Source: a virus
Lineage: Duplodnaviria; Heunggongvirae; Uroviricota; Caudoviricetes
DNA length: 64,000 bases
IMG/VR virus record: IMGVR_UViG_3300029615_000411
Span: 119,874-183,873 of that record
Direction: 5' to 3' (one strand)
Shown here: piece by piece, positions 12,335 to 53,300 of the stretch
Numbering within the stretch: position 1 is the stretch's first letter
How the letters are laid out: the number at the start of each line of letters is the position of its first letter
The notes under the pieces: model-generated
What the model saw: only the letters and a program-made list of their open reading frames with translations
What the model was told of the DNA's origin: nothing
Databases searched by the model: none
Program-made: the position numbers and the translations under genes

Positions 12335-12345
12335 AATACATCACC

Positions 12346-13509: not shown

Positions 13510-13565
13510 GAAAATCTCCTTTATAAAAAGACCCCGGCAGACAGGTTGCCTACCGGGGCAGTATT

Positions 13566-14068: not shown

Positions 14069-14083
14069 TGTGTTGCCCTCCCG

Positions 14084-19878: not shown

Positions 19879-19879
19879 T

Positions 19880-25168: not shown

Positions 25169-25264
25169 AAAAAATCCTCCGAACGAGTCGCAATATAGTT
25201 GAAAGTACGAATTTTGGGATACTCTGCGTGATAAAATATAAGTGTCTACCAGATAACAATGGGA

Positions 25265-25395
25265 CTCACTGACTGATGCATAGCAGTTGTTAAAACGGAA
25301 AGAACAACTAATATACAACTACCTGTTGTTATCATGATACCACACATGCAGTTGTCCAGCAACGAACTTTTGTTCGCATAGACAACAAAAAAGAA
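25265..25395. promoter_or_regulatory. iteron cluster (at least 7 copies of CAGTTGT/ACAACTG-like 7-8-mers, both orientations) between the ParM-like gene and the XRE gene; candidate parC centromere or operator
   Basis: agCAGTTGTt, gAACAACTa, tACAACTAc, cTGTTGTTa, gCAGTTGTc, tTGTTCGc, GACAACAa within about 120 bp. Confidence 0.4.
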
Positions 25396-35155: not shown

Positions 35156-35815
35156 TTAGCCTACTGCGGTTTCGTCAGCAGGGGCCTCGGACTCAGCAGC
35201 AGAATCAGCCTCGGCAGTATCCTCAGAGGAAGCCTCCTCAGTGGATTCGGCGGCATCGCCATCAGTCTCGGTGCTTTCAGCCTCGCTGTCAGAAGCCTCA
35301 CTGTCAGCAGCTTCAGATTCAGCAGTGCTCTCAGCCTCGGATGCGGCCGCTTCCTCAGCAGGCACGGAGGTAGCCACCAGCAGATTGCCCTCGGCATCAG
35401 CCTGACCACAGTTGTACAGATATGCGAACGCGGCGCTCAGATTGTCGAACTTGGACAGGTCAGGAACCTCAACAGTAGAACCGTCATCAGCGGTCTTGGT
35501 ACCGTCGAAATGAACGCTGCCGTCCTCGTCATAGCGAACGGTGACGGTATAGCCATCGCTTGCCAGAGCCTCGGTCATATAAGCGGCATAAGCGTTCATG
35601 GTGGTCTTCATCTGGTCCTCACTCAGAGAAACACCATCGGGCATCTCAGTCAGCTTGCTGTTATCCAGAACCTCAACTGCGGACTCACTGGTCGCGCCGC
35701 TTGCACTGGCAGCATCATCCTTCTTGCCACAACCAACAAATGCAGTGCAGGCCATTGCCATAGCAAGACACAGCGCAGCACCCTTCTTTACAGAACTCTT
35801 GTTAACCTTCTGCAT
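35156..35815 (-). CDS. lipoprotein with highly acidic A/E/S-rich C-terminal tail
   Basis: AAGGAG RBS before ATG 35815; LAMAMACTAFVGC lipobox-like signal. Confidence 0.5.
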   Translation of the reverse strand: MQKVNKSSVKKGAALCLAMAMACTAFVGCGKKDDAASASGATSESAVEVLDNSKLTEMPDGVSLSEDQMKTTMNAYAAYMTEALASDGYTVTVRYDEDGSVHFDGTKTADDGSTVEVPDLSKFDNLSAAFAYLYNCGQADAEGNLLVATSVPAEEAAASEAESTAESEAADSEASDSEAESTETDGDAAESTEEASSEDTAEADSAAESEAPADETAVG

Positions 35816-35880
35816 GAGTAACTTCTCCTTTTTCATGTGTGTTTGTTTGATGTGCATAAACAAGCTTCATGCACTATGCT

Positions 35881-35952: not shown

Positions 35953-35991
35953 ATGTTATCTCTTACGCGGAGTAGAGATTATTTCAGTTGG

Positions 35992-38900
35992 TTACTGCTT
36001 CTTTTCCTCGGTTTTATCCTCAGTCTTTTCAGCAGCTTTTTCTTCGCTATCGCCCTTCTTCTTCTTGACGATGACAAATGCGCCAACGCCAATCAGAGCA
36101 ACAACAACGATAACAGGAACGATGATGTCTGCGCCAAAACCAACGCCAGTCTTGTAGTTAACTACAACAGGTGCCGGAGTGGGAGCGGGTTCATTCTTAA
36201 CTACAGGAGTCGGAGTCGGTCTGCTTTCTTCCGGAGGATTCTCCAGCTTAACACTTGCTACCCGAACATCACCGTAGTTGCCTGCCTTATCGACTGTACG
36301 GGTCACAATGTAACCAGTCCAATCGGGACTCAGCTTGAAGGTAACGTAACCGTTGTCCTTATCAATGTTTGTGACATTGACAGTCTCGAACTTGGTTTCG
36401 TCGAAGGTGTAATCGCCCTTAGCACTCTTGGCAATAGCAGAACCATTGACCTTGTAATACTGAATCTTAGCGACACCGGAGTTGTACTCGCCATCCAGAG
36501 CGGAAATAGCAGGAACGGAATCCTTGACCTTTACAACAGGCACGAAGTCAGGGTCTTCGGTATCGTCCTTATCACCGTTTTCGTCGGGAGTAGCAACGCC
36601 ATCGTTACCGTTTTCATCACCGGTCTCGTCGCCGGTTGTGAAGAGAGCGGGCTTACCATGAGCAATACGAAGCGTAGTGGCTTCGGTCTTGTCATCGGTT
36701 GTTTCGGTCTTCTCGGACTCGCTGGGAACTTTCTCCTCGGTACCGGATTCGGTTTCATCCTTCTTGTCGGAATCTTCCTTCTTATCGGTATCGTCGGCAT
36801 CGTCCTTCTTGTCGTCTTCCTTCTCAGGTGCCTTGCCGGTCTCTTCACCAGTAATGAACACATTGATGGTGCTCTCGAACTTGACGAACTTCTCGTTCAG
36901 CAAATCTGTCTTATTGGTGGAATCAACCTTATCGGCAGCGAAAGCAGAAGCAACGACAGGAGCTTCGGTATCAACAGATGTGGTGATAGTTCCCATCTCG
37001 GTAATGGCACCGGTCTTCAGGTCAATCAAGTAATAGGTAGAAGTAACCTTCTCACTATTAGCGGAAATGACCATCTTCTCGGCCCACTCAGCATCGGTCA
37101 GGGAATCGCTGGTTCCGATTGCGTAACCCTTAGGAGCGATAACTTCAACCTCAGAGTTGAAGTACAGGTCACTCAGGTCATCAGTCGTCTTCTTGGTAAC
37201 CTCAACAGGCTTACCGGTCTTTTCGTCAGCCACAGTACCAACGATAGTTGCGGGTTCTACATCGGCAAGATGCAGACGCTGGACTTCGATGTCTCCGGTG
37301 GTAGGCAGGTAATTGTAGTTGTCGTAAGCGCCGCCAACATACTTGAAAGCGTCCTTCGTCAAGCCAACATTACCGAAGATACCATCGATGCTGGAAGCAA
37401 CAATGAGTTCGAAGGAAGGCAGCTTAACGGTTTCAGCAGTCTCGTCGAAAGCGTAACCACTGGTCTTGATTTCGGGAATCTCCGTCTTAGTGCCATACAG
37501 CTTGACGACGGGGTTCGGGTCGAGAGTAACCGTCAGGTCTTTACGAGCGATAACGAACTGACCATCGGCTTCGTTCTTATCGGCATCGACGACATTGATT
37601 GTTACTGCGTAATTCTGCTCAACAGCAGCATCGTAATCAGAGGTAACGGTGTAGGTGTAAGTACCAGCGTTCTTGACATTCTCAGTCTTGAACTGGCTGT
37701 CGCTCTCCACGCCGTCATCGCCGCTGGCGATGTCAGGAGTCAGAGTCGCCTTTGCATCAGCAGTCAAGGGAGCAGTCTGTGCATTGTCGGTGGTCTTATC
37801 GTTCTCGAAAGGAGTATAAACAAGTGCCATCTTCAGGCCCAGAGAATCAGGTTTGACAGCTGCACCGTGTGTACCGTCGCCATTGGTGGCAACAGCATTT
37901 ACGGTGAAGTCGGGGTTAGTGGTATCGCCATAGACGATATCCTTGGGCTCGGTGACAGTGACTTCGACCAGACGTTCGCCAATGGTATAAACGCCATTAA
38001 CAATCGTAATCAGGTAATCGTCATTGTCGTAAGAACCGACCATGTCGTATGCACCGTAATTCTTGACAGATTCGGGCACGCTCTCCGCAACCAGAGAAGC
38101 AGCACCGTCAGCAGACTTCATGGAAATCTCTTCGGCAACCGCATTCTCAACATCCTTCTGAGTGATGCTGATAATAGCTTTCAGGTCATCGCCATTTACG
38201 ATGGTCTTCTTATCGGCATCGCCAGTATAGGTAAGAGTATTGCTCAGTTCAGCCATTTCATTGCCGTAGACAGAACCAACAGTTCCGATGGTCCAAGTCA
38301 GAGGACGCTGAGTGACCGTGTAAGTGCCGTTCATAGCAGTTACTAGATAATCCTGATAAGAAGCCTGACCGACGCGGTGAGCCAGACCGGAGAAGGAAGG
38401 AACAATGTCATAGCCTCCGACATGGCTTGCAGAAGTGACGAGGCACAGGTTCGTGCCTTCCAGAATATCACCATTGACCAGAGCTGCCTTGGCAGTGTCA
38501 CCAGTGTATTCCAGAACGTTCACGGTACCGTAATCAGACCAATCTTCAACAGCAACATCGTCGCCATAGATAGAAGTCTGGGGTTTAGCGGTGACAGTGA
38601 TGGGACGCTTGTCGATAACAAAATCAACGGGAGCGTAAACAAAGGTGTAGTTGTTTGCTGCGGCATTCTCAACATTTGCAGGAACGACCTTGCCGGTACC
38701 AGCGTGAGAAGCTACCGTTGCGGGAGCTCCCTCAGCATCGGTAAAGTTGAAGGTCAGGTTTGCAATGCTCAGGACACCAGCATCATCGGGAGTGGTGTTG
38801 CCCTTGACGGGTTTCACAACGAATCCATCGAAAATCAGGTCATCGCCGGAGAGAACAGGGTTCTCATCGCCGTAAATCTTGCTCTGAGCTGCCAGAGTGA

Positions 38901-41900
38901 CATTCAGAGTAGCAGGAGTGATTTCGAAGGTGTTGTTTACGCGGGTGATGTTGAAGTTGACATCGTCGCCCTCGATAATCATCGGGTGCTTGCCGACATC
39001 TTCACCAGCATCGGTGCCAGCGTCAGGACGAACAACCTTCAGGTTTGCAAGGTCACCTGCATCTTCGCTTACATAGTAAGCGCCGTCGCCAGTTGCAGTC
39101 CAAGTCAGTTCGGGGTCAGCCTCGCCGTAGACCTTCTTCTGGCCTTCGTCAACAACCACGATTACATCGCGCTTATCGACATGCAGAGAACCATCAACAA
39201 AGACGATGGGGTCATAGTTCTTTGCGCCCTTGTTTTCCAGACCGCTCATGGTGATGACATAATCGCCAGCAGCAGGACGAGCAGGAATCTCGGACAGAGA
39301 ACCGTCAGCATTCTTGATGTTGTAGACAACCGAGCCAGTAAATGCGGAAGCAACGGTGTCATTGTTCTTCAAGCCAGTAACGGTGTAGCTGAACGTGGGA
39401 ACGGTGCCGCCATAAATCATGGAGTAACCGCCAGCCACGGTAAAGGTGACCTTAACGGGCTTGATGGTCAGAGTAGCAACTTCCAGAGCCTCGGGCTCAG
39501 TGGTGGAAGAACCAACGTCGACGGAAGTGCCGGAGCCAGTCACGATGGTGATGGCGTAGTTGCCGTACTTGTTGTACAGAGTAGAGCTGATGTGGTATTC
39601 ACCGACATCCTCACCGGCTTTGCGAGTAACAGAGCCGCTCAGAGCACCAGTAGTCAGTTCCAGCGTATTCTTCTTCAGACCATCGTTGGAAATGTTGCCG
39701 GAAATCTCGCTGTAAGAGAATGCGGGGTCTGCATCGCCGTAATCCTTCTCGTAGTTGGAGAAAGTCAGGGTGATGGGACGATGAGTGATGGTGATGGTAG
39801 AATCAATCACCGTCAGGTCGTAGTTGGCAGGCTGTGCGTAGATAGCTTTCAGAGCATAAGTGCCAACGCTTGCGGAAGCAGAAGTTGCACCGGAAGTCAG
39901 GGTAATGCCCTTAAGAATCTTTTCGGCTTCTGCTGCCTGAACATCAGTAGTAGTCAGCAGACCAGTGCCGCCCTTGATGTAATCCTTCACGTTCATAGAA
40001 GTGAGGGTCTCACCATAGGTCTTTTCGGTTTCAAGCAGGTTGATAACGGCAGTACGCTTATTGATGGTGAAGCGAACATCATTGGTGAAGCTGATACGAT
40101 AGTTCTTTGCCATCGTCTGCTCATAGATGTTACCGCTGTAAATCGGATAAGTGCCAGCGTTCTCGCCTGCTTCACGGCTCAGACGAGCCTGTGCGAAGTC
40201 GGCCTTGGGTTCTGCGAAGCTGGTGGTATTGTAGTCGAAGATGACATAGGTATCGTTGACTGCAAAGCTGGGGTCAGTCTCGCCGTAAGTCTTGGACAGG
40301 CCATAGCGAGGAGTGATGGTCAGGGGCATCTGATGAACAATCAGCATGTTCTTGCCATCGGGCTCAGACAGCTTAACGCTGTTTGCGGGCTGGTTATCCA
40401 GACGGAAGGTCAGGTTGTAAGAACCTGCATCGTACAGACCAGAAGCGTTCGCAGTAGCCTCAACGGCGATACGAACAACGCCCAGAGAAACATCCTTGCC
40501 GTCCATCTTGATGTTGACGGTTTCGCCATCGTGGTAAATCTGAGTGCCATCGGAGGTATTCACATTGACGGAAACTTCCTTGGCGATGGTATCGGGCTTC
40601 TTCTCACCGTAAGTAGTCTGCAGTGCGTTGAAGGTGACAGAGACATCAGCCTCGGTGACTTGGAACGTAGCCTGCGGGGCAATCGTTACGATGTAGTTGG
40701 GGTTCTCATCATAAGAGATGGTAGCCTCATAGTTGCCGACAACCGTAGTGGGGTCTTCCCACTTGGTCAGGTCGATGTGGATGTTCAGCGGGCTGCCCTG
40801 CGGGTCAACCACATTGATAGCCTGAGAACCGGTCTCGTCATACAGCGCATAGCTGGGGGTGTTCTTACCGGCAACGCCGTACTTACGGACGCTGTTGGTA
40901 GTACCCTTGATGGTGACAGGCAGTGCATTGATAGTCAGCGTACCGCTTGTACCATCGCTGTAAGTGCCGGTGTAAACGATGTTGTAGTTGGGGTTGGTGT
41001 AACCGGAAACAACAATAGGATAGGTACCAACACCAGTCAGCTTACCAACGGTATTGTCAACGCCATACTTGATGGTGACAGTGCCGCCCAGAGAAGCGAC
41101 GGTATCATGGATGCCAATTTCATCGTTGCTTGCGAAGTTCTTGTATTCCAGTGCGCCGGTAATATCGGCATCGCTGGGATTCTCTGCGCCATACAGACGC
41201 TCACGGTTCGGAACAGTGATGGTCAGAGTACGCTTGGTGATAGTGTACTTATCGGGAGCATTGAAGGTGATGTCGTAGTTCTTGGCGATTTCAGCAGTCT
41301 GGAACTGTGCATCGCTGTAAGCGTAAGAGCCAACAGTCTCGCCGACCTCACGAGTCACAACGCAGCCAGCAAAGTCGGAGCCAACACGGCCGCCCTTGCC
41401 ATTGACGGGGTCAAGAGTAAAGGCAACGCCGCCCTTGGCATCACTGTCGCCGTAAACCTTCGTCTGACCACCCATCACATTGATGGCGATAGGACGCTTG
41501 GTGACGGTCAGCTTGCTGTTGACAAAACGAACCAGATAGTTGTCGTAACGGTCGTAGTTCTTGCCATCGGCATTGGGGTCCCAGTCAGAAGACCAACGCT
41601 CCTGAGAAGCACCCTGCACAGATGCGCTGACGGTGTATTCGCCAACATTGGCAGTTGTAGGAGTGCCGCTGTTGCCAGCCGCATCTACCATAGTAAAGCC
41701 AAGCTTGTCCTCGGTCAAACCGATGCTTGCCTGTGTATCGTTCAGCTTGAAACCTTCGATGGATTTAATCTTGCCGGAACGAGCAGCGCCATACATTGCG
41801 GACAGGTCATCGAGAGTGACAGTCAGCATTGCAGGATGGATGATGTACTTGCTGTTGATGACCTTGACGTCATAGTAAGCAGTGCATGCAGGGGGAACTT

Positions 41901-43944
41901 CGACAGTCATCGGATATTCGCCAACATTCTTATTGTCGATATCCTGACGCTGTGTTGTCAGAACCATGCTGACCAGCTTGTTCACACCGTCATCAGCGGT
42001 GATGTCAGAACCGGCGACAATACGCTTGTCGGAGGCCACTGCCTGAGCAGCACCGTTATAAGCAACAGCGTCGAAGGTGATGGTGGAAGACTTGCCCTTT
42101 TCAGCCTCACCATAGATGGCATCAATCTGGTCATTGGTGATGGTTACGTTACGCTTGGTAATTTCAAACGTTGCGGTAGCAAGGTTGATGTTATAACCAT
42201 TGATAGGCGCATTCGTCTGGATATTGCCGATTGTAACAGTGTAGCCACCGGGAGCAGAGGTGATGCTGGGCAGAACAACGGTGGGTTCACCGCTCAGACC
42301 AAGCATCTCTTTCAGAGCAACTGTGTTGGACTTGTGCTCGTTGTTGGTCTTATACTCGAAATTCGTCTTATCGGTATCAGACCAGCCGGTAATCACGAAG
42401 TCAACCTGAGGATTCTGCTGACCATACTGACGAGTGGCTTTGCTGCCGGTCGTCTGTACGCCATCATTGCCCTTGAAGACAAATACAGGAGTCAGGGTCA
42501 GAGTCTTTTCAGAAACGACAACATACACATCGCCGGTATTGGGCTGAATGTCGATGTTGTAGTTTGTGTTGCTCTTCGCGGAGGAACCTAAGATGATTTT
42601 GTAAGAACCGGTAGTGTCCTTATCAAAGTTCTCTGTGGTCAGAACATCCGCAGGAAGCAGGTCGCCGTCAACCAGACCACCATTGGTGTCCATGACTGTG
42701 TAGTTAATCTGGCTGATGGTATTGCCCTTCGTAACATAAGTGGTATGAGGGACAATGTAAATCTGACGCTTGTTGATAGTCACGCCCGTGTCATTGCGGA
42801 TATCCTTAGAAGAATCCAAGTTGGAACCGTCAATGATGGTGTAATTCAGACCATTCACAGTAACGCTTATGGCACCTGTATCAACATAAGTCGGATAAGT
42901 ACCGGCATTGCAATGAATGTCTGTGGGATTCTGGCCGTCGCCGTCAGCCGGAGCGTACATAATGAAGCTCAGACCGTCGATAGCTGCCTGAATATCCTTT
43001 TCGACTTCCTGAGAAGTACGGGAATCAGCAGTGCTGTATTCGATGGTCAGACCCTTAGACTTGAAGGAGTCACCGTATGTGTAGGTAACAGTCTGAGGCA
43101 GAATGTGAATAACATTCTCCTGACCGCTAATCTTGGTATACTGAATACCAGTGCCTGCGGCAATCTGCTTACCAGTCTCAGCAGCGGTGATTGCCTGATA
43201 GTCCCCGATGACAGTCGTAGAACCGCCGCCATCAAACGCGCTGGCACCGCTGTTGTCTACGGGGTTTTCCTGACGGTCGCAAACCTGCAGATACAGGTCA
43301 GACATATCAAGGTATGCACTCATGACGGGCTCGGCGACCTGCTCATCCTCGCTCAGAGAATAATACATGTCCTCAATGGGTTCCCAGTCATAAACTGCAT
43401 CCAATTCCTCAGTGCGACGCGTGACCATCGCATCAAGAACCGCATTTTCCTTGTCAGCCTGCCATGCCTTGCTTGCAAGACCGAAGTTGTTTGCAGCAGT
43501 CAGAATTTCATCTTTACGGCTTACAAGGGCGTTAGCCGCATCGATAAATGCCTGTGCTGCTTCACTGATGCTGCCAGTGGTAGAAGCTTCGCTGGAAGTG
43601 CTGGTGCTTGCACCAGTATCAGAGGCAGCACTGTTTGCGTAGGCAGTGGTCGTTTCAGACCCCGCCTGACTTGTAGCCTCAGAAGAAACATCGCTCGTCA
43701 CAGAAGTGTCGCTGGACGCGGAACTTGCTGTGTCGGTAACATCGCTTTTCGGCGCGGGAGTAGTAGCGGAAGAGTCGGAGTTTGTTGTCGTAGTGCTGAG
43801 TGCATCAGTTTCCTTCGGAGCTTCTTCACTCTGCGTGATTCCACTCGCGCTCTCCACTGCATAAGCAGTGACAGGAGCAAACTGAGACAGGCACATTGCT
43901 ACGGCGACAATCGCACTCAAAAACCGCTTACGAGGTTTCTGCAT
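35992..43944 (-). CDS. giant secreted cell-wall adhesin (2650 aa): signal peptide, S/T-rich N-terminal region, many MBG-like repeat modules, C-terminal NYKTG sorting signal
   Basis: AGGAGGG RBS before ATG 43944; signal peptide MQKPRKRFLSAIVAVAMCLSQFAPVTAYA; recurring YG...KVYGD.DP...NY.IT repeats; ends NYKTG + TM + KKKKGD. Confidence 0.8.
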   Translation of the reverse strand: MQKPRKRFLSAIVAVAMCLSQFAPVTAYAVESASGITQSEEAPKETDALSTTTTNSDSSATTPAPKSDVTDTASSASSDTSVTSDVSSEATSQAGSETTTAYANSAASDTGASTSTSSEASTTGSISEAAQAFIDAANALVSRKDEILTAANNFGLASKAWQADKENAVLDAMVTRRTEELDAVYDWEPIEDMYYSLSEDEQVAEPVMSAYLDMSDLYLQVCDRQENPVDNSGASAFDGGGSTTVIGDYQAITAAETGKQIAAGTGIQYTKISGQENVIHILPQTVTYTYGDSFKSKGLTIEYSTADSRTSQEVEKDIQAAIDGLSFIMYAPADGDGQNPTDIHCNAGTYPTYVDTGAISVTVNGLNYTIIDGSNLDSSKDIRNDTGVTINKRQIYIVPHTTYVTKGNTISQINYTVMDTNGGLVDGDLLPADVLTTENFDKDTTGSYKIILGSSAKSNTNYNIDIQPNTGDVYVVVSEKTLTLTPVFVFKGNDGVQTTGSKATRQYGQQNPQVDFVITGWSDTDKTNFEYKTNNEHKSNTVALKEMLGLSGEPTVVLPSITSAPGGYTVTIGNIQTNAPINGYNINLATATFEITKRNVTITNDQIDAIYGEAEKGKSSTITFDAVAYNGAAQAVASDKRIVAGSDITADDGVNKLVSMVLTTQRQDIDNKNVGEYPMTVEVPPACTAYYDVKVINSKYIIHPAMLTVTLDDLSAMYGAARSGKIKSIEGFKLNDTQASIGLTEDKLGFTMVDAAGNSGTPTTANVGEYTVSASVQGASQERWSSDWDPNADGKNYDRYDNYLVRFVNSKLTVTKRPIAINVMGGQTKVYGDSDAKGGVAFTLDPVNGKGGRVGSDFAGCVVTREVGETVGSYAYSDAQFQTAEIAKNYDITFNAPDKYTITKRTLTITVPNRERLYGAENPSDADITGALEYKNFASNDEIGIHDTVASLGGTVTIKYGVDNTVGKLTGVGTYPIVVSGYTNPNYNIVYTGTYSDGTSGTLTINALPVTIKGTTNSVRKYGVAGKNTPSYALYDETGSQAINVVDPQGSPLNIHIDLTKWEDPTTVVGNYEATISYDENPNYIVTIAPQATFQVTEADVSVTFNALQTTYGEKKPDTIAKEVSVNVNTSDGTQIYHDGETVNIKMDGKDVSLGVVRIAVEATANASGLYDAGSYNLTFRLDNQPANSVKLSEPDGKNMLIVHQMPLTITPRYGLSKTYGETDPSFAVNDTYVIFDYNTTSFAEPKADFAQARLSREAGENAGTYPIYSGNIYEQTMAKNYRISFTNDVRFTINKRTAVINLLETEKTYGETLTSMNVKDYIKGGTGLLTTTDVQAAEAEKILKGITLTSGATSASASVGTYALKAIYAQPANYDLTVIDSTITITHRPITLTFSNYEKDYGDADPAFSYSEISGNISNDGLKKNTLELTTGALSGSVTRKAGEDVGEYHISSTLYNKYGNYAITIVTGSGTSVDVGSSTTEPEALEVATLTIKPVKVTFTVAGGYSMIYGGTVPTFSYTVTGLKNNDTVASAFTGSVVYNIKNADGSLSEIPARPAAGDYVITMSGLENKGAKNYDPIVFVDGSLHVDKRDVIVVVDEGQKKVYGEADPELTWTATGDGAYYVSEDAGDLANLKVVRPDAGTDAGEDVGKHPMIIEGDDVNFNITRVNNTFEITPATLNVTLAAQSKIYGDENPVLSGDDLIFDGFVVKPVKGNTTPDDAGVLSIANLTFNFTDAEGAPATVASHAGTGKVVPANVENAAANNYTFVYAPVDFVIDKRPITVTAKPQTSIYGDDVAVEDWSDYGTVNVLEYTGDTAKAALVNGDILEGTNLCLVTSASHVGGYDIVPSFSGLAHRVGQASYQDYLVTAMNGTYTVTQRPLTWTIGTVGSVYGNEMAELSNTLTYTGDADKKTIVNGDDLKAIISITQKDVENAVAEEISMKSADGAASLVAESVPESVKNYGAYDMVGSYDNDDYLITIVNGVYTIGERLVEVTVTEPKDIVYGDTTNPDFTVNAVATNGDGTHGAAVKPDSLGLKMALVYTPFENDKTTDNAQTAPLTADAKATLTPDIASGDDGVESDSQFKTENVKNAGTYTYTVTSDYDAAVEQNYAVTINVVDADKNEADGQFVIARKDLTVTLDPNPVVKLYGTKTEIPEIKTSGYAFDETAETVKLPSFELIVASSIDGIFGNVGLTKDAFKYVGGAYDNYNYLPTTGDIEVQRLHLADVEPATIVGTVADEKTGKPVEVTKKTTDDLSDLYFNSEVEVIAPKGYAIGTSDSLTDAEWAEKMVISANSEKVTSTYYLIDLKTGAITEMGTITTSVDTEAPVVASAFAADKVDSTNKTDLLNEKFVKFESTINVFITGEETGKAPEKEDDKKDDADDTDKKEDSDKKDETESGTEEKVPSESEKTETTDDKTEATTLRIAHGKPALFTTGDETGDENGNDGVATPDENGDKDDTEDPDFVPVVKVKDSVPAISALDGEYNSGVAKIQYYKVNGSAIAKSAKGDYTFDETKFETVNVTNIDKDNGYVTFKLSPDWTGYIVTRTVDKAGNYGDVRVASVKLENPPEESRPTPTPVVKNEPAPTPAPVVVNYKTGVGFGADIIVPVIVVVALIGVGAFVIVKKKKGDSEEKAAEKTEDKTEEKKQ

Positions 43945-44259
43945 GTTAGTTGCCCTCCTAATAATGTGAGTGTTCTGTGGTTTTACCACAGCCGGATTTA
44001 TATACACCCTTACCTACTCCCTAGTGTGCAGCCTCGATTGTAGATAAGAAAGTATATCAAAACACAAGCAATCAAATCGCATATTTACAATATGCCACAA
44101 AAAAGACAGAAAAGTCAATCAAAAATTTTGACACAAAAATGCCACCCATGAACGCATTCTCATATTTCATATGGACATGGATGGTTGAAACATTAACGCA
44201 AAACCTGCTTGACTATAGCTATTATTTGTTCTGAGAAATTTGATGCTGTATTTATATCT

Positions 44260-44320: not shown

Positions 44321-44359
44321 GCAAAAAAAGAGCGGCAGCTCTTTCGAACCACCGCTCTA
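44321..44359 (-). terminator. terminator after giant adhesin 2 (AGAGCGG...CCGCTCT TTTTTTG)
   Basis: 7-bp stem plus T7. Confidence 0.55.
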
Positions 44360-44371
44360 TTGTTTTACCGC

Positions 44372-47300
44372 TTATTCAGCGGAATCATCCTTATGGTTAT
44401 CTTTGTTGTCGTTTTCGTCCTTCTTGCGCTTGTGGTTTACTACCACCAGAGCAGCGACGCCAATGCCAACCATTGCTACCAGACCAACAATGCTCTGTGC
44501 AAATCCGATACCCGTCTTCTTGTTGCTCGTGAAGATAGAGAAGAGGGAGAAGGGTTTGCCGTCTACCTTGAAGATATCGAGCCATCCAATCGGCGGGGTC
44601 GGAGTAGGCTTCGGGTTGTCAGGAGTCGGAGTAGGCTTCGGGTTGTCAGGAGTCGGAGTCGGCTTAGGCTCGTCAGGCGTTGTGGGAGTAGAGGGCTTCA
44701 CAACAGGGACTTTCACCTCGTTGGAAGGTTTCTCTACATCTTCATCAATCGGCTTGGACGGGTCCTTACCATGACCCGGATTCTCGGGGTCTTCGGGATT
44801 CTGACCCGGAGCCTTAGCGACAGCCACGTTAATGACATCGTGTCCGGCATCCGCGTCAACGGCAACATAAGAATAGGTCAGAGTGAAGGATTCGCCAACA
44901 GGGATACGAACAATAGTGAACGTTGTCGTTGCGCTATTGTAAGTATATTCATCACCGTTCTGGGCTTCAATATGGCTTGCGCCGTCATTGTTGTCCTTTA
45001 CGGTTACATTGACAAGGTCTACTTCACCGGTATTGGTTACTACCACACGATAATTGATGGTTTCACCGACATTGACTTTCGTCTTGTCAGCACTCTTCAC
45101 AATCGTGAGGCTCTTTTCGAGCGGAACATCCGTTTCCGTACCGGAACCCGGAACTTCCACATCGACCTTGTTGGACGGAATATCCGTATCAGGGTCAATC
45201 GGTTTCGTCGGGTCTTTACCCTGTCCGGGATTCTCCGGGTCTTCGGGGTTCGTACCGGGAACATGAATCGTCGCTACGTTTTCAAGAATGTGCGTAGTCA
45301 CATCGGCGATACCGACAGTATAAGCGTAGTGGACAACCACATCGCCGCCAGCAGGAATCGTGTCGATGGTGAATACACCATTCTCATAGTGATAACCAGC
45401 GCCATCCACTGCGAAAATGCTTCCGGAGAAGTTATTCTCATCAGTCAGAGCAGCATTCTGAATATCGTGGTCTTTGCCATTGTGTACCGTTACGGTATAG
45501 GTGACAGTCTCACCCGGCTTTGCGACAGTCTTGTTTGCAGACTTCCAGATGGTGACAACGCCATCATCAGGCTTCTTCACATCGACTGTATTGGACGGGA
45601 TATTATACTGCTCGCCATCGTGCGTGTACTTAATGGTTGCGGTATTTTCCATAACGCTCTCATCGGTCGTCTCTACCGTATAGGTATAAACGATATCAAG
45701 AGCCTCACCGGCATCCAGATAACCGATAGTCCAAGTGCCGTCTCCGTTATAGGTATAGCGGTTAGAACTCTCAGCCGTAACATCACCCGCAAAGTTGTTA
45801 TGGTCTGCGACAGTGATATCGTTTACGGTTTCATCTGTCGTGTTCTTCACCGTAATGGTGTAGGTCACAACATCCGTTACCTTAGCAATATACTTATCGG
45901 CATCCTTTTCAACATCGATAGGCGGTGTCGGGTCTTTCACAACAGCAGCGTTCAGAACCTTAGGAGCATCAGCGGTAACTACCACATAGGTGAAGTTAAG
46001 CGTTACGCTCTCGCCAGCCTTTACAGTGCTGATGGTATAGGAGTTGTCGCCGTTATCCGCAACGCCATCCATGGGCACAAAGTTGAGCGTTCCGTTGCCA
46101 TCGAAGAAGTCTTCGACCACAACATTTTCCGCATCAGCCTTGCCTTTATTGGCGACAGTAACCGTATAGTTGAGCGTATCGCCAACCTTGGCCTCTGCCT
46201 TATCAACGGACTTGGTGATTTCGATTACAGGAATCTCTGTTTCGGTTTCAGAGCCGGGAACTTCCACATCAACCTTGTTGGACGGAATCTCCGTATCGGG
46301 GTCAATGGGTTTCTCGGGGTCTTTGCCGTGACCCGGATTATTCGGGTCTTCGGGATTCGTGCCGGGAACATGGATTGTTGCAATGTTTTCGAGAATCTGC
46401 GTGGGCACATCAGCAATTTCAACCGTATAGGTGTAGTGGATAACCACATCACCGCCTGCGGGAATCTTATTGATTGTGAATTCGCCGTTCTCGAAGGTGT
46501 AATCTGCACCTTCAACGCTTACGATTTCGCCAGCAAAGTTGTTGGTGTCTGTCAGACGAGCGTTTTCGATGTCGTGATTCTTTCCGTTATGAACCGTGAC
46601 GGTATAGGTTACAACCTCACCCGGCTCAGCCTTTGTCTTATCTGCAGCCTTGCGGATGGTGACAACACCATCATCGGGCTTCTCGACATCGACGGGGTTG
46701 GACGGGATATTGTAATCTGTGCCATCCTTGCTGTAAGTCACATTTGCAATGTTTTCGATGACGGTGGCATCCTCAGCCTGCATCGTATAGGTGTAGGTGA
46801 TATAGATGGTCTCGCCAGCGGCAATAGTCGGGATAGTCCACGTCTTATTGCCATTGTAAGTGTACTTGTCAGCGTTTTCGGCCTTGATTTCGCCCTTGAA
46901 GTTGTTAGTATCGGTGACAGTTACATTGTCAACAGACTCAGAAGTGGTGTTCTTCACGGAAATCGTGTAGGTTACAACCTCATCAACCTTTGCAATGTGC
47001 TTGTCGGCTTCCTTCTCGACGTCAACAGGCGGTGTCGGGTCTTTGATTACTGCGGCGTTCAGTACGAGAGGTTCGTCTCCTTCAACTACAACATAGCTGA
47101 AACGAAGCTTTACGCTCTCCCCTGCCTTGACCGTAGAAATAGTGTAGGTGTTGTCTCCGTTATCTGTCACACCATCCATGGCCTTGAAGTTCAGCGTTCC
47201 GTTTCCGTCAAAGAAGTCCTTAATCAGGATATTCTCAGCATCCGCGTTACCGCCGTTCTTGACAGTGACGGTGTAGTTTAGCGTATCACCAATCTTGGCA

Positions 47301-50300
47301 GTAGGCTTATCTACAGACTTGGTAATAGAGATTTCCGGAATCTCGGTCTCAACTTCGGAACCGGGGACTTTCACTTCGACCTTATTGGACGGAATGTCCG
47401 TATCGGGGTCAATAGGTTTATCCGGGTCCTTGCCGTGTCCGGGATTCTCAGGGTCTTCCGGATTCGTGCCGGGCACATGTGCCGTGGCAACATTTTCCAG
47501 AATGTGAGTGGGTACATCTGCAATCTGCACCGTGTAGGTGTAGGTCAGAACAGCGTCTGCACCAGCAGCAATCTTATCGATTACAAAGTGTCCGTCAACG
47601 AACTTGTAGCCGACACCATTCGTGCCGGTAATCGTTCCAGCAAAGTTGTTGGAATCGCTTACGACCACATTGGTGATGTCATGCGCCTTGCCGTTGTGAA
47701 TCGTAACCGTGTAGGTCACGACCTCACCGGGTTCTGCAATCTTCTTGTCACCGCTCTTGACAATCGTAACTTCGCCATCCTTCGGGACAACGACTTCAAC
47801 GGGGTCTGCCTTGATGACATACTCGCCGTCATCGGTCGTGTAGCGAACATCAGCTTCGTTGACCAGCGTAGAGGGGTCGGTAGTCTTCACCGTATAGGTG
47901 TAGAGAATATCGATGCTCTCACCAGCCTTGATGCTGGGGATAGTCCAAGTATGGTTGCCATTGTAGGTGTACTTGGCGTTGTCTTTAGAAGTGATTGCAC
48001 CTGTAAAGTTGTTGGTGTCGCTGACCAGCAGGTCGGTAACGGTCTTATCAGTCGTGTTCTTCACCGTGATGGTGTAGTTGACGACTTCATCGACCATCGC
48101 TACATGCTTGTCTGCGGTCTTCTCGATGTCAACGGGAGGCGTCGGGTCTTTCACAACAGCAGCGTTCAGGACCATCGGCGCATCTCCGGCAACGACCGTG
48201 TAAGTGAAGCGGAGCGTAATGCTCTGACCCTTCTCCACATTCGCAACCGTGTAGGTGTAATCACCGTTATCCGTCACACCGTCCATCGGAACGAAGTTCA
48301 GGACACCGTTACCGTCAAAGAAATCCTTAACGACAGCGTTCTTGACTGCCTGTCCGCCAACATTCGTCAGCGTAATCGTGTAGTTCAGCGTATCCCCAAC
48401 CTTGGCTTCTGCCTTATCTACACTCTTAACGATTTCGAGCTTGCCTTCCGGCACATCAACATGCGTGCCGTCACCGGGAACCTCAACATCGACCTTGTTG
48501 GAAGGAATCTCCTCGTCAGGGTCGCCGGGGTTCTTGCCGGGAACGTGAGCCGTTGCAATGTTTTCAAGAATCTTGGTCGGAACATCGGCAATCTGGACTG
48601 TGTAGGCGTAACGGACCACTGCGTCACCGCCAGCAGGAATCTTGTCAATGACAAATTCGCCGTTGGTGAACTTGTAGCCAGCGCCATCTACGCCTTCAAT
48701 CTTGCCCGCGAAGTTGTTCGCGTCAGTCAGACGGACATTCTTGATGTCGTAATCCTTACCGTTGTGAATCGTAACCGTATAGGTAACGACCTCGTTCGGC
48801 TCAGCCTTGGTCTTGTCGGCAGTCTTAAAGATGGTAACGACACCATCGTTAGGCTTTTCGACTTCGACGGGGTTGGACGGAATATCGTAGTCAGTACCGT
48901 TGTAGCTATAACGCACATCGGCAGTGTTTTCAATGACAGTTTCATCGTTTGCCTGCATCGTATAGGTGTAGGTAATGTCGATGGACTTGCCGGATTCGAG
49001 CGTTGCGATGGTCCAAGTCTTATCACCGTTGTAGGTGTAGCCCTTGCCATCTTTGCCTTCGATTTCGCCCTTGAAGTTGTTCGTATCGCTTACCAGCAGA
49101 TTCGTCAAGGTGTCCTTGGAATTGTTCTTCACCGTAATGGTGTAGGTAACAATCTCATTAACCTTAGCGATATGCTTGTCTGCGCTCTTCACAATATCCG
49201 TGGACGGTTTGGGAGTTGTGATGACTGCCGCGTTCAAAACCTCAGGCGCGTCTCCGTCAACTACCACATAGGTGAAGTTGAGCGTTACGCTTTCGCCAGC
49301 CTTGACGCTTGCAATCGTGTAAGTGTCATCACCGTTATCGGTGACGCCATCCATAGCCACGAAGTTCAGTGTGCCCTTGCCGTCGAAGAAGTCCTTGACT
49401 GTGACATTCTCAGCATCGCCCTTGCCGTTGTTCTTGACAGTAATCGTGTAGTTCAGAGTATCACCGACAGCGGCTTCACTCTTGTCTACACTCTTCGTCA
49501 GAACAAGGTCAGGAATCTTGGTTTCAGTTTCGGAACCCGGAACCTCAACATCGACAGGATTCGAAGGAATCTTCTCATCGTTATCGATAGGCTTATTCGG
49601 GTCTTTACCGTGACCGGGGTTGTTCGGGTCTTCGGGATTCGTTCCGGGAACATCAGCCGTAGCGATGTTTTCCAGAATCTGAGTAGGCACATCACCAATT
49701 TCAACCGTGTAGGTGTAGGTCAGAGTGACCGAAGCGCCTGCGGCAATCTCAGCGATATGGAACTCGCCGTTCTCGAAGGTGTAATCTGCGCCGTCAACGC
49801 CAGTGATTTCACCAGCGAAGTTATTAGCATCGGTTACTACAACATCGTGAACATCGAAGCCCTTGTTGTTAGTAACGGTGACATTGTAGGTGACGACCTC
49901 ACCCGGCTTAGCCATCTTCTTGTCCGCTTCCTTGTGGATGGAGACAGTGCCCTTATCGGGTACGACCACATCGACAGTCGGCGTATCAAGCTTAACGGTA
50001 TTACCGTTCTCGGAATACGTCACATCAGCCTTGTTCTCGAGGAGCTTCTCATCATTGCTCTGTACCGTGTAGGTATAGGTAATGTCGATGGTCTCCCCTG
50101 CTCCGATTTCCGGAATCGTCCAAGTATTATCGCCGTTATAGGTGTACTTGTCTGTATTGGCGGCATTGATGCTGCCAACAAAGTTATTGGTATCCTTGAC
50201 AGTGACATTCGTCTTTGCCTTGGTATCGGGGTTATACACGCTGATGGTGTAGGTCACGATTTCATCGACAAATGCGAACTTCTTGTCAGCCGTCTTGGTG

Positions 50301-53300
50301 GGTTCGAGCGGCGGGTCAACGGGCGGCGTCGTGACGACAGCGGCGTTCAGGACCTCAGGCTCATCGCCTTCCACGATAACATAGGTGAAGCGGAGCTCCA
50401 TGAATGTACCGGCAGGCAGTTTGTTGATAGTGTAGGTGCCATCACCGTTTACTACAACACCGACAGTCGGGATGTAGTTGAGCTTGCCGTGTCCATCGAA
50501 GAAGTCTTCGACCAGAATATTTTTCAGTTCGCCATCGCCAACATTAGACACCTTAACGGTGTAATGCAGCATATCGCCAACAGAAGCACTCTTCTTGTCT
50601 ACGAATTTCTCGACTTTCAACTTGCCCTCGGGCGGGTTGACAGGAACAGGTACATCACTGCCGGGAACCTTGATGGTGACCTCGTTAGAAGGCTTCGTCT
50701 TTTCATTCTCAGGAGTCTGGTCTTCGTCAGCGAACCAGTAATGCAGCGTAGCCACATTCTTCAGCTCGTTGTAAGTATCCTGACCCTTACCGGCATCGGT
50801 GTTCAGCACAATGTAATCATACTCTACCGTGACAGTCTTGCCAGCCGGAATAGTGCCGACCTTGATGACTGCGGAACCGGCAGATGCAGATTCCAGAGTA
50901 CCGTTCTTGACATTCGTGATAACGCCGTTGAAGTTGTTCTTGTCGTGCAGCGCTGCATTCACATAGTCAACAGTGTCATTGTTGTGCATGACGACGGTGT
51001 AATGCACCGTATCGCCGATGTTTGCAATGGCCTTGTCTGCCTGTTTTACAACGGTGGGTCCGACATGTTCCGGCGTGGGAGTATCGGGGATGACAGGGAT
51101 ATCAACCTCATTGGAAGGAATCTTTACCTTGCCGGAATCCGTCACATATGTCATTTCGGCGTTATTGACAAGCATGGTATTGGGAGCATCTTCATTCATT
51201 ACCGTGTAGGTGTAGACAATGTCTACGCTCTCACCAGCGCCGATAGAAGAAATATTCCAGACCTTGTCGCCAATATAGCTTACAACATCAGTGTTTTCGG
51301 CAGGTGTGATAACGCCCGTGAAGTTGTTCGTATCCTTGACCTCAACATTCGTCTTGGTCTCGTTAGTCGTATTGGTAACGGTAATGGTGTAAGTCACCAC
51401 CTCGCCAACCACTACGGTCTGTTTATCTGCCTTTTTCTCGATTTCGGGAATTTCCGGAATCTCGACAGCAGCATTGTTTACGGTGCCCTTGTCGCCTTCT
51501 TGTACGGTATAGGTGACAGGAATCTCAACGACCTCACCAGCCGCAATCTCTGCGATGGTGAAGGAATGAGTCGCTGCGTCATAGGTGTACTTGTCGGAAC
51601 TTGCAGCATTGATTTCACCAATGCCGTCATTGAAGTCGCGTACAACTACATTCTGAGCAGTCATTGTACCGTTGTTGGTAACGGTAATGGTGTAGTGAAT
51701 GGTATCGCCAATCATCACGCTGGATTCAAGAGAAGTCTTCACAACGCGAATATCGCGGTCAGGCACTTCGCCTACATGGACAGTCTCAGTATCGGGGTCG
51801 CTCGTAACAGTCTTGTTGTCGGGGTTCTTGCCCTCAGCAACAGCCGTATTCACGATGTTACCGTTATCGAGGTTCATGTCCTCTGCCACAGCAGTATAGA
51901 CATAAGTGATTTCAACGGAATCGCCTGCGTTCAGCTCAGGAATCATCCACTTGCCGTTTCCGTCATACATCAAATCGCCAGTGTACTCGACAGTGCCGTT
52001 GCCGTTGGATGTATCGGTAACGATAACATTCGTCAGCTTGGTATTGCCGCTGTTCTTGACGGTCAGAGTATAGGTTACGGTCGTGTCATTGCCGTTCATA
52101 TCAACGAAGCTCTTGTCAGCGTTCTTTACGATGGTCAGTTCATCACGGAGCACATCAACCTCAACAGGCTTAGAAGGCTCTTCGATGTCCTTGTCACCCG
52201 GAATCTCAGTATCGGGATTCTTGGGAGCGTGAGCAGTAGCTACGTTGATAATCGTTTCGGGGTCACCGTTCTGCACAATATACAGGTAATTCAGAGTAAC
52301 GGAATCACCGACATTCAGAGCAGGAATGGTGAACAATCTGGTTTCGGGGTTATAGGTATATCCGTCGCCGGTAGAGACGATAAACATACCCAGAGCATTG
52401 GTGTCATCGGAGACGGTAACATTCGTCATATCGACAGTGCCGTCGTTCGTGACAGTGACCTGATACTTGACGACTTCGCCGGGATAAGCGTGGTCGCGGT
52501 CAGCAGACTTGACAATCGTCAGGTGCTTGTAGTACAGCGGCACGATTACTTCGTTGGAATCGACAGGTTTTTCAGGAATAGTCGGGTCTTCGCGAGCAGG
52601 AATCGTTGCGGTAGCAATGTTATCCAGCTTGCCGTTTGCGAGGTCATCTGCGACAACCGTGTACTTATAGGTAATGGTTACGGACTTTCCAACGCCAAGG
52701 CTGGTGATTGTCCATGTTCCATCATCGTTGACACGATAGCCGAAGTGGAGCTTCGTGTTCTCGACAGGCTCGCCCATGAAGTTGCTCGTATCCTTTACGA
52801 CAACATTTTCAAGCTTCGTGTTGCCCGTATTGGTGACTTTCAGCGTGTAAGTGACGACATCACCTACGCCAGCCTCAGTCTTATCAGCACTCTTTTCGAT
52901 GGTCAGATTCTGACGGATGATTTCCACATCAACATCAGGAGTCTCGACCAACCAATCCTTGTTAGGCTCGGTATAGTTCGGAGTCGTGCTGCCATCAGGG
53001 TTTTCAGTATAACTCTCGACTACCTTCATATCGGTAATCTTGGCGTTGTTTTCGAGGATGTCGTTGTTGTTGGTGCCGTGGTCGGTCGGGTCTACCGTGT
53101 AGGTATAGGTGAACGTTACAGCATTGGTATGGGTTTCATCGCGCAGATGGGAAATCTCTGCGATAACGAACTCGCCCTTCTCTGCATCATAGGTCACACC
53201 GTTTGCCTGAGACAGGGCAGGAACACCAACGAAGTTGTTGGTATCTTTAACGATGACGTTGTGCAGGTCATGACTGGTCGCGTTCGTAACGGTAATCGTG

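Follow-up and report, generated by a model that had tools for sequence, protein, structure and literature searches.

Predicted proline-less, class B-type sorting signals on two giant secreted proteins of a gut mobile element encoding a divergent sortase homologue

Two giant secreted proteins, A1 and A2, are encoded in the window analyzed here (64,000 nucleotides of IMG/VR virus record IMGVR_UViG_3300029615_000411), and their C-termini raise the question of whether they are cell-wall sorting signals and, if so, which enzyme would process them. We propose that both tails are probably class B-type signals that lack the usual proline and are processed by the element's own sortase. The features on which this reading rests are collected in Table 1. 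Translation of positions 44372-45271 (minus strand) shows that A2 ends in PTPDNPKPTPTPDNPKPTPTPPIGWLDIFKVDGKPFSLFSIFTSNKKTGIGFAQSIVGLVAMVGIGVAALVVVNHKRKKDENDNKDNHKDDSAE followed by the stop codon; motif, transmembrane segment and basic cluster all lie in its final 52 residues, with NKKTG at exactly the coordinates given in the preliminary description. The membrane segment reaches a hydropathy of 2.7 over 19 residues, and 25 residues separate the glycine of the motif from the basic cluster. In staphylococcal protein A, the distance from T-G to the basic cluster is also 25 residues. The preliminary description had further likened this signal to that of A1, and the resemblance is real, since A1 ends in PTPAPVVVNYKTGVGFGADIIVPVIVVVALIGVGAFVIVKKKKGDSEEKAAEKTEDKTEEKKQ and a stop, that is, in NYKTGVGF, a transmembrane segment and KKKK; compared directly, NKKTGIGF (A2) and NYKTGVGF (A1) are alike. 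Its account of a stalk of PTPDNPKPT repeats immediately upstream stood only in part: the 27-bp repeats coding for these units are real, but a 22-residue spacer lies between them and the motif, leaving them outside the span described for the signal.

Table 1. Coordinates of the features discussed, numbered along the window.
Feature	Position	Strand	Basis or remark
Giant secreted protein A2, reading frame open at window edge	44372..64000	-	Full length about 7,323 aa
A2 Pro/Thr-rich linker (KPSTPTTPDEPKPTPTPDNPKPTPTPDNPKPTPTPP)	44591..44698	-	Translation, TRF
27-bp tandem repeat in A2 linker	44598..44677	-	TRF; 3.0 copies, 92% matches
A2 spacer IGWLDIFKVDGKPFSLFSIFTS between linker and motif, aromatic/hydrophobic, variable	44525..44590	-	Alignment; 22 residues
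A2 C-terminal sorting signal (predicted): TSNKKTGIGF, hydrophobic segment, HKRKK, acidic tail	44375..44530	-	Translation, motif search, homologue conservation
NKKTG pentapeptide	44510..44524	-	Motif search
Predicted sortase cleavage in NKKTG, between T and G	T 44513..44515; G 44510..44512	-	From established sortase chemistry
A2 membrane segment IGFAQSIVGLVAMVGIGVAALVVVN	44435..44509	-	Hydropathy; 25 hydrophobic residues
A2 basic cluster HKRKK (cytoplasmic stop-transfer/retention signal)	44420..44434	-	Translation
A2 extra acidic/Lys-rich cytoplasmic tail DENDNKDNHKDDSAE	44375..44419	-	Translation
A2 stop codon	44372..44374	-	
Intrinsic-terminator-like hairpin	44329..44358	-	13 nt past A2 stop
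Giant secreted protein A1, about 2,650 aa, MBG_2 repeats	35992..43944	-	Signal peptide MQKPRKRFLSAIVAVAMCLSQFAPVTAYA, then VES
A1 sorting signal (predicted), whole	35995..36171	-	
A1 NYKTG pentapeptide	36145..36159	-	Motif search
A1 hydrophobic segment	36067..36144	-	
A1 KKKK, then charged tail	35995..36066	-	
FloT-like flotillin	31224..32759		
SecY, 446 aa	14084..15424	-	PF00344, E 1e-86
SecG-like two-TM protein, 84 aa	13814..14068	-	Weak assignment
SecE homologue, 83 aa	13566..13817	-	
Exported lipoprotein foldase, 387 aa	12346..13509	-	Lipobox signal MKKNAKMILAVISAACIALTAC, then S
Divergent class B sortase homologue, 323 aa	11363..12334	-	phmmer vs PDB, TIGR03064
Terminator-like hairpin closing foldase-sortase unit	11243..11274	-	

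Both proteins bear classic Sec signal peptides ending in AYA. For A2, of which the window holds 6,542 residues, related contigs place the true start about 800 codons farther upstream; its signal peptide (MQKGKTWQRVASAVLAVMMTMSTFSSTIAYA, then AEP) was seen in the L017/L013 N-termini, and one is also present in the homologue P0025 (7,323 aa). The N-terminal half of A2 consists of MBG_2 repeats and the C-terminal half of about 22 DUF11/CLIPPER repeats. The database protein P0001 carries a stretch identical to the last 74 aa of A2; a short-query protein search gave no match, a false negative of its word index.

Chance is excluded as the source of the shared motif: in the six-frame translation (128,000 residues) N.KTG[IV]GF would be expected 1.3e-4 times, yet it was observed twice, at the A1 and A2 C-termini only; KTG occurs once in the in-window residues of A2. 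The preliminary description had named non-conservation in homologues as grounds for rejecting its reading of the motif, and the similarity does extend to relatives: [K/Q/P]-T-G-[I/V] was kept in all ten distinct homologue C-termini (45-97% identity), with T-G invariant, and in every one of these variants a basic cluster, [KRH][KR]2-4, begins 23-26 mostly hydrophobic residues after the G. What differs among the variants is the flanking sequence, the tail and the length of the protein (1,683-7,323 aa), adjacent sequence being replaced or deleted; none of the deletion variants across this range has lost the signal peptide or the C-terminal signal. The A2 spacer is swapped or missing in relatives, and the repeat content of the A2 linker varies even among 97%-identical contigs. 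Neither K-T-G nor the second G varies in the A1 and A2 alignments, and in A2 homologues at 45-47% identity K-T-G-x-G is invariant, the 22-residue spacer deleted and the tail replaced.

Signals of the A2 type read NKKTGIGF, NKQTGIGF or PSKTGVG[VL] and those of the A1 type NYKTGVGF, QAPTGVGL or QSKTGVDL, giving the class consensus x-x-[K/Q/P]-T-G-[I/V]-[G/D]-[F/L/V]. Positions 1-2 are not fixed (N-K, N-Y, P-S, Q-A, Q-S), and the main variants have no proline at position 2. Peptides representing the signals are FTSNKKTGIGFA, VVNYKTGVGFGA, AAQAPTGVGLSA and RDPSKTGVGL. In two of three lineages the signals of A1 and A2 resemble each other (N-x-K-T-G-[IV]-G-F in the window, [PQ]-S-K-T-G-V in L030), as expected if one enzyme were common to both. 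In the L003-L006 lineage the first three motif positions differ, with NKK on A2 versus QAP on A1, and within-element similarity is therefore not universal.

Measured against the tripartite definition of a cell-wall sorting signal, the proteins combine a T-G motif, a hydrophobic segment with basic cluster and a Sec signal peptide, with a sortase in the same element. Canonical residues at positions 1-2 (L-P, N-P, L-A, S/P-P) appear in neither signal nor in their variants, and to our knowledge every characterized sortase signal is more constrained there. The LPXTG_anchor model TIGR01167 (cut-off 15.9 bits) gave 13.7 bits on A2, with T-G aligned, and 15.5 bits on A1; Rumino_NPXTG (NF033846) gave 8.5-11.7 bits on the two signals against a cut-off of 23.5. 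Neither the srtB-signal models nor TIGR03065, which we take to be the NCBIfam model for the QVPTGV pilin-type class B signal, matched A1 or A2. A TM-plus-basic C-terminal signal was found on no other secreted protein among the window ORFs and six related-locus sequences.

A candidate enzyme for both signals lies 24-33 kb from them on the same strand. This gene, which had gone unnoticed in the preliminary description, was spotted in the ORF translations and then confirmed against PDB and NCBIfam; judged by its sequence, the product is a divergent class B sortase. Its N-terminal tail is acidic, and a single TM (residues 67-90) leads into the catalytic domain, in which His209 (IFGHS), Cys303 (LSTCS) and Arg312 (TRFIV) align with the GH, (S/I)TC and R of 5b23 and 5jcv. 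All eight phmmer matches in PDB were SrtB enzymes (E 5e-12 to 5e-7), the best being C. perfringens SrtB 5b23 (E 5e-12), with Listeria 5jcv, S. aureus 1ng5 and C. difficile 5gyj/4ux7 (E 2e-9 to 5e-8) among the others. TIGR03064 matched over model positions 9-235 of 235 (E 5.7e-22), at 78.2 bits against an equivalog cut-off of 153.75, and the class E model gave 14 bits. Pfam Sortase matched neither this ORF, even at E<=10, nor any of about 35 ORFs, and a TLxTC active-site expression missed the gene, whose actual site is ILSTC. Its tblastn matches carry class B sortase annotation, and it is 25-34% identical to its nearest relatives. An AlphaFold2 model of the sortase domain, built from the single sequence without an alignment, had a pLDDT of 33.5, too low for the fold to be judged.

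The genetic setting of the signal is unusual and self-contained. The sortase gene is the last of a one-strand cluster in the order SecY, SecG-like, SecE, lipoprotein foldase, sortase, an arrangement shared by all six of the related contigs in IMG/VR and by 21 public contigs. SecY is of the canonical bacterial type (TIGR00967, 330 bits, above cut-off; SecY2 model, 146 bits), while the SecG-like protein stays below cut-off with PF03840 (E 0.0018) and TIGR00810 (E 3.9e-4). The SecE homologue has SecE chains as its top PDB matches (E 0.007-0.03) and a K-V-x-W-P signature, and the identical gene in public contigs carries a precomputed PF00584 SecE assignment. The foldase, called at the same 387 aa in public contigs, joins an FKBP PPIase domain to a trigger-factor-like body without the ribosome-binding N-domain. 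Taken together, the conserved motif, the Sec signal peptides and the class B sortase homologue support the shared anchoring pathway that the preliminary description had suggested for the two proteins.

The element matches IMG/VR contigs of 346-389 kb, including IMGVR_UViG_3300023499_000220 (346 kb) and 3300045988_181067 (389 kb), and recurs in human-gut metagenomes such as PRJEB7774 and PRJEB9576. It is listed as viral in IMG/VR; on the window, which has a GC content of 46.7%, PHROGs recognized only a family of unknown function and a ParM-like partition protein. Scans with the A2 C-terminal alignment found no relatives in GTDB genomes and only the same six contigs in IMG/VR, and the exact protein of ORF 1134..2597 is not on record. 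Jug gut phages were considered and rejected as an identity: they are similar in size, but have a GC content of 27-30% and Bacteroides hosts.

Both C-termini might instead be plain, uncleaved single-pass anchors of type I membrane proteins, with KTG[IV]G playing a structural or packing role next to the membrane, the charged tail forming a functional cytoplasmic domain that contacts, for example, the FloT-like flotillin encoded nearby or other partners, and the sortase acting on other substrates. The window proteins have unusually long charged tails, 20-24 residues past the basic cluster, with an acidic extension of 15-20 residues; an acidic tail of the A2 type is unusual among sortase substrates, and charged tails of 20-31 residues are partly conserved between lineages, a hint that they may still act in the cytoplasm, in which case the anchor would stay uncleaved. 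The variable positions 1-2 and the failure of every curated sorting-signal HMM to reach its cut-off point the same way. However, more distant homologues lack the acidic tail and end 5-9 residues past the helix (in RRKKK, RKKKDE or KRGKGGKK before the stop), so the long tail is dispensable; moreover, the invariant residues are the T-G scissile pair, at a sortase-typical distance from the basic cluster, and a class B sortase without other visible substrate lies in the same conserved neighborhood. We consider a plain anchor rather unlikely. A non-sortase C-terminal system (PGF-CTERM, PEP-CTERM or Loki-CTERM, served by an archaeosortase, exosortase or rhombosortase), with G-[IV]-G-F in the place of PGF, can hardly be right: GVGFG and GIGF, followed by a TM and basic cluster, look superficially PGF-like and Loki-CTERM scored 12-18.4 bits against a cut-off of 19.9, but the top score, on A1, covers the hydrophobic helix only (model positions 5-25), no exosortase- or archaeosortase-like polytopic protein was found in about 35 ORFs scanned, and G-F is not conserved (VGV, VGL and VDL in relatives) whereas T-G is. 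We dropped the idea on these grounds; SecY, the trigger-factor-like protein and FloT are, besides, of bacterial/Firmicutes type.

A genuine sortase signal could also be processed by a host-encoded sortase, either housekeeping or class B, leaving the element's enzyme another role such as pilus-like polymerization or cargo elsewhere on the 346-kb element. Positions 1-3 are very different (NKK, NYK, QAP, PSK), and one specific enzyme might not accept them all. In Streptococcus pyogenes, the class B pilus sortase Spy0129/SrtC2 has the signal QVPTGV, which the QAPTGV of the L003-lineage A1 homologue resembles. Furthermore, our inspection covered about 20% of the element, so other substrates or sortases may exist on the rest. 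Against this, a 40-residue profile of the signal, short and family-biased as it is, matched A1/A2 homologues only among 1.84e9 proteins, and no host or ordinary bacterial protein, which argues for a private signal-enzyme pair. The sortase gene, in addition, keeps its place beside the export genes in all relatives (six of six related IMG/VR contigs), and the sortase diverges faster than SecY (74% versus 90% between lineages), a difference that goes along with a switch from NYKTG to QAPTG in the A1 signal. Processing by a host enzyme thus seems quite improbable, and the element's own sortase remains our preferred candidate.

Among characterized systems, class B sortases recognize motifs such as NPQTN and NPKTG, and C. 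difficile SrtB recognizes PPKTG/SPKTG and, less efficiently, the proline-less NVQTG (PMC5118464), the only such precedent for the A1/A2 signals. The C. difficile enzyme is, like that of the window, of class B, and in its substrates x-x-K/Q-T-G precedes a TM and basic residues. In contrast, the window signals have no proline in their main variants, leave positions 1-2 free and conserve [IV]-G-[FLV] after the glycine; the window enzyme is about 30% identical and has a long acidic N-terminal cytoplasmic extension, and its genes reside on a ~350-kb mobile element rather than a chromosome. The iron-regulated SrtB systems of S. aureus, B. anthracis and Listeria (NPQTN, NPKTG, NAKTN) share the class, N at position 1, K/Q at position 3 and a dedicated sortase near its few substrates. 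Their substrates, however, are small NEAT-domain haem receptors rather than giant adhesin-like repeat proteins, the proline at position 2 is missing from the window signals, and no isd genes occur in the window. The QAPTGV-G end of the L003-lineage A1 homologue is one conservative change away from the S. pyogenes pilus signal, but the window proteins are thousands of residues long, and nothing points to pilin-type polymerization. The accessory Sec system (SecA2/SecY2) for serine-rich-repeat adhesins shares the concept of a second SecY beside very large wall-anchored adhesins; in the window, SecY is canonical rather than SecY2 and is accompanied by SecE and a SecG-like gene, and genes for SecA2, Asp or glycosyltransferases did not turn up. 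Inocles, giant extrachromosomal elements of oral Streptococcus, resemble the window element in size (~350 kb) and in encoding a sortase, LPXTG-like surface proteins with signal peptides and enzymes related to secretion; their host is Gram-positive, as is presumed for the window element (PMC12340149). Their genes include those for sortase A and a signal peptidase rather than SrtB, SecYEG-like genes and a foldase, their signals are LPXTG-like, and their GC content is 24-32% (PMC12340149) versus 46.7% here; there is no sequence relationship, and the window element is therefore not an Inocle.

Under the preferred reading, the A1 and A2 pre-proteins would be exported via Sec, possibly through the element-encoded SecY/SecE/SecG-like translocon, and would fold outside the membrane with the help of the lipoprotein FKBP/trigger-factor-like foldase. 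The hydrophobic segment and basic cluster would retain them in the membrane until the membrane-anchored class B sortase cuts NKKTG and NYKTG between Thr and Gly and links the Thr thus exposed at the C-terminus to the cross-bridge of the peptidoglycan in a presumably monoderm (Firmicutes-type) host. The Pro/Thr linker may then span the wall as a stalk, displaying the MBG and DUF11/CLIPPER repeats, about 7,300 and 2,650 residues in the two proteins, as adhesin-like fibers. We also advance, more tentatively, a wider proposal: that this ~350-kb gut element carries a self-contained orthogonal surface-display system. Its parts would be a SecY/SecE/SecG-like translocon, an exported lipoprotein foldase derived from trigger factor, the highly divergent class B sortase and two giant adhesins with a private proline-less x-x-K-T-G-[IV]-G signal, which the search of 1.84 billion representatives turned up in no other family of proteins.

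If the signal is cleaved, the sequence space of sortase substrates would widen to include motifs with no proline, free positions 1-2 and [IV]-G after the scissile glycine. Screens built on motifs or HMMs, such as LPxTG/NPxTG regular expressions, TIGR01167 and Pfam Sortase, overlook both substrates and enzyme, so gut Firmicutes and their mobile elements probably have more surface proteins than the annotations show. As an orthogonal ligation tool, a sortase that recognizes a private sequence could also be of use. The context, however, outweighs the motif in importance: if the display system is indeed self-contained, the element could re-coat the wall of its Gram-positive host independently of host secretion and sorting, and an element equipped with translocon, foldase, sortase and multi-thousand-residue adhesins would be an example of how, in the human gut, a mobile element can reprogram the adhesion and surface identity of its host cell.

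The last 52 codons of A2, one of two neighbouring giant secreted proteins (A1 and A2) of the window, lie at 44375..44530; in translation the A2 C-terminus reads ...PTPDNPKPTPTPDNPKPTPTPPIGWLDIFKVDGKPFSLFSIFTSNKKTGIGFAQSIVGLVAMVGIGVAALVVVNHKRKKDENDNKDNHKDDSAE and that of A1 ...PTPAPVVVNYKTGVGFGADIIVPVIVVVALIGVGAFVIVKKKKGDSEEKAAEKTEDKTEEKKQ. A motif search placed NKKTG at exactly 44510..44524, as in the preliminary description, and Tandem Repeats Finder recovered the 27-bp repeats it had reported (27-bp unit x3.0, 44598..44677, 92% matches). These had been placed immediately upstream of the motif, but a 22-residue aromatic/hydrophobic spacer intervenes. The PT-repeat region is polymorphic among 97%-identical contigs, with PTPDNPKPT x3 in the window and ...PTPDNPKPTPTPVPTEKPK[TP]PP in IMG/VR contigs (related loci L001/L002, about 11000..11100) and in homologue P0001. 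Alignment of the A1 and A2 C-termini bore out their proposed likeness: N.KTG[IV]GF is found in both, and BLASTP of the 150-residue tails gave 28% identity with 27% gaps, the alignable part being limited to the PT linker, motif, helix and basic cluster. In a six-frame translation of the window, this pattern was expected 1.3e-4 times and seen twice, at the two C-termini and nowhere else, while KTG is present once among the 6,542 A2 residues inside the window. The tail motif is real, and chance is ruled out.

The motif similarity, which the preliminary description had made depend on homologues, extends to them, with T-G and spacing kept in ten variants. A2-type signals read NKKTGIGF (window, P0001-5, L003-6), NKQTGIGF (P0029) or DPSKTGVG[VL] (P0006, P0007, P0010, P0026 and the 6,526-aa P0028), and A1-type signals NYKTGVGF (window), AQAPTGVGL (L003 lineage, P0022) or RQSKTGVDL (L030). 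An alignment of A2-type tails (45-90% identity) showed no change in K, T or either G, while the 22-residue spacer was deleted and the tail replaced. In 10/10 variants, 23-26 residues separate the Gly from the basic cluster, a spacing shared with known sortase signals. The long acidic tail of A1 and A2 is optional, since more divergent homologues end 5-9 residues past the helix. A 40-residue signal profile searched against 1.84e9 representative proteins returned eight matches at E<=1e-3, all of them A1/A2 homologues.

Both proteins have Sec-type entry signals. A1, built of MBG_2 repeats, begins with a classic signal peptide, MQKPRKRFLSAIVAVAMCLSQFAPVTAYA|VES. In nearly identical contigs A2 starts about 800 codons upstream of the window edge with MQKGKTWQRVASAVLAVMMTMSTFSSTIAYA|AEP, preceded by an AAAGGAG ribosome-binding site, and its full-length representative has 7,323 aa, with MBG_2 (YGX-type) repeats in the N-half and about 22 DUF11/CLIPPER-DUF7507 repeats in the C-half. 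Length variants from 1,683 aa (P0027, an in-frame deletion form) to 7,323 aa retain the signal peptide as well as the C-terminal signal. Recombination of the repeat arrays appears to be frequent and to spare the two ends. In one assembly (L020, 9960..10030), an internal deletion with a frameshift breaks an A2 homologue into pieces of 2,926 and 414 aa. Plus-strand shadow ORFs of up to 3,981 aa within the giant genes were rejected as genes, since only 7 of 6,542 A2 codons are TTA, CTA or TCA and the codon-aligned antisense frame is nearly stop-free. A conserved acidic lipoprotein (lipobox FVGC / LTAC) directly follows A1 in the window and in the divergent relative L030 (37613..38260).

Pfam scans of neighbouring ORFs reported no sortase, and public annotation records no Pfam family for the exact protein, which is found on 21 contigs; nevertheless, a divergent class B sortase homologue was spotted in the ORF translations. 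It has an acidic N-terminal tail, a single transmembrane segment (residues 67-90) and a catalytic-type domain including ...NTVGYLTVPG..., ...VIFGHS... and ...LILSTCSGSDNYDTRFIVCAKL. Class B sortases were its sole PDB matches by phmmer: 5b23 from C. perfringens (E 5e-12), 5jcv (Lmo2181) from Listeria (7e-10), 5gyj and 4ux7 from C. difficile (2e-9 to 5e-8) and 1ng5 from S. aureus (5e-7), whose His, Cys and Arg align with the putative catalytic His209, Cys303 and Arg312. NCBIfam TIGR03064 (class B sortase) matched over its full length (E 5.7e-22) at 78 bits, under the 153.75-bit equivalog cut-off, and a class E model scored 14 bits. The closest plasmid and phage homologues (25-34% identity) are all from Firmicutes, those annotated being labelled class B sortase. 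AlphaFold2 without an alignment gave a pLDDT of 33.5, too low for a usable model.

The sortase is the final gene of a same-strand cluster (11363..15424) that is kept in 6/6 IMG/VR relatives. The listed 450-aa "trigger factor" ORF was mis-started: its true start is 13509, with the lipoprotein signal MKKNAKMILAVISAACIALTAC|S. Because this signal is present and the ribosome-binding N-domain absent, the product is predicted to be an exported foldase rather than a cytosolic trigger factor. Between lineages, the sortase is less conserved (74% identity) than SecY (90%), a divergence that parallels the change of the A1 signal from NYKTG to QAPTG. On either side of the cluster are several small proteins of unknown family, either multi-TM or TM-plus-acidic; their order is the same on public contigs, and they may be additional export or anchoring components. 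Downstream of A1, at a distance of about 3 kb, lies a FloT-like flotillin/SPFH protein, which could set up membrane microdomains that serve secretion and sorting machinery.

Features of the window
Feature	Position	Strand	Remark
Radical-SAM protein	3628..4413	minus	weakly similar to peptide-maturase and viperin-type families
DUF1281_C/Api92-like protein	5390..6187	minus
Small TM proteins	9852..10451, 10870..11199, 16445..16960, 17783..19207, 19204..19887	minus
Terminator-like hairpin	11243..11274		past sortase
Class B sortase homologue, 323 aa	11363..12334	minus
Lipoprotein foldase, 387 aa	12346..13509	minus	lipobox signal, FKBP and C-terminal trigger-factor domains
Terminator-like hairpin	13531..13559		between SecE and foldase
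SecE, 83 aa	13566..13817	minus	top PDB matches SecE; K-V-x-W-P signature; PF00584 on record
SecG-like, 84 aa	13814..14068	minus	weak assignment
SecY	14084..15424	minus	TIGR00967, 330 bits, above cut-off; canonical, not SecY2
ParM/Alp7A-like actin partition protein	24209..25318	minus	phrog_691; Pfam MreB-like_C/ALP_N
FloT-like flotillin	31224..32759	minus	NF058507, 261 bits, below cut-off
Acidic lipoprotein	35156..35863	minus
A1	35992..44007	minus	ORF listing
Strong terminator-like hairpin	44329..44358		after A2 stop
A2	44372..63937	minus	ORF listing; frame still open at base 64000
Shadow ORFs	35953..38346, 38377..42591, 47435..59380, 60671..63061	plus

The window covers about 20% of a ~350-kb gut element, has a GC content of 46.7%, and yielded no tRNA genes or Rfam families when searched. 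The majority of its ORFs are without a Pfam or PHROG family, exceptions including the partition ATPase, the flotillin, a PIN7 protein and the radical-SAM protein; the latter and the DUF1281_C/Api92-like protein are unrelated to the signal. IMG/VR lists the element as viral; its ParM/Alp7A-like protein is a hint that it is maintained like a plasmid or phage-plasmid. The closest IMG/VR contigs (97-99% protein identity) are UViG_3300023499_000220 (346 kb) and 3300045988_179664; identity falls to 80-90% for four more, the largest of 389 kb. Many human-gut assemblies carry identical or similar genes (e.g., PRJEB7774, PRJEB9576), and chicken gut is the source of more distant A2 homologues. Jug phage (GC 27-30%) and Inocle (24-32%) were both rejected as identities of the element. 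Inocle, an element of oral streptococci with sortase A and LPXTG-like proteins (PMC12340149), is the closest published analogue; the combination on a ~350-kb gut element of SecY/E/G-like proteins, an exported foldase of trigger-factor origin, a divergent SrtB and a pair of giant substrates did not turn up in the literature searched.

The main rival to sortase processing is that the A1 and A2 C-termini are plain, uncleaved membrane anchors. Against a sorting signal, the motifs are without Pro and free at positions 1-2, curated signal HMMs do not accept them, the charged tails are long and partly conserved, and the sortase score is sub-threshold. On the other side stand the architecture, the conserved motif and spacing, the signal peptides, a sortase homologue with its triad, and its conserved linkage to the Sec and foldase genes. 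The A1/A2 signal is in keeping with the known substrates of class B sortases, among them NPQTN and NPKTG. Those of C. difficile SrtB are PPKTG, SPKTG and, with lower efficiency, NVQTG, which has no Pro (PMC5118464). Alternatively, a host sortase might process the signal. In two of three lineages both proteins of one element are alike in motif (window, N-x-K-T-G-[IV]-G-F; L030, [PQ]-S-K-T-G-V), as expected if one enzyme processes both; in the L003 lineage the motifs are unlike (A2 NKKTG, A1 QAPTG). An exosortase-type system is unlikely.

The best-supported reading is that both tails carry a cell-wall sorting signal of the sortase type, in a new sequence class (x-x-[K/Q/P]-T-G-[I/V]-[G/D]-[F/L/V]), and that the class B sortase encoded by the element itself processes it. 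Each component taken alone belongs to a known class, with the signal as a new variant. The host would be a monoderm Firmicute, given the Firmicutes relatives of the sortase, the FloT-type flotillin, the lipoprotein signals and a strong Shine-Dalgarno sequence. In such a cell, A1 and A2 would be exported through the element-encoded translocon and paired as substrates with its class B sortase, which would cut at T|G, the PT linker would span the cell wall, and the giant proteins may act in adhesion.
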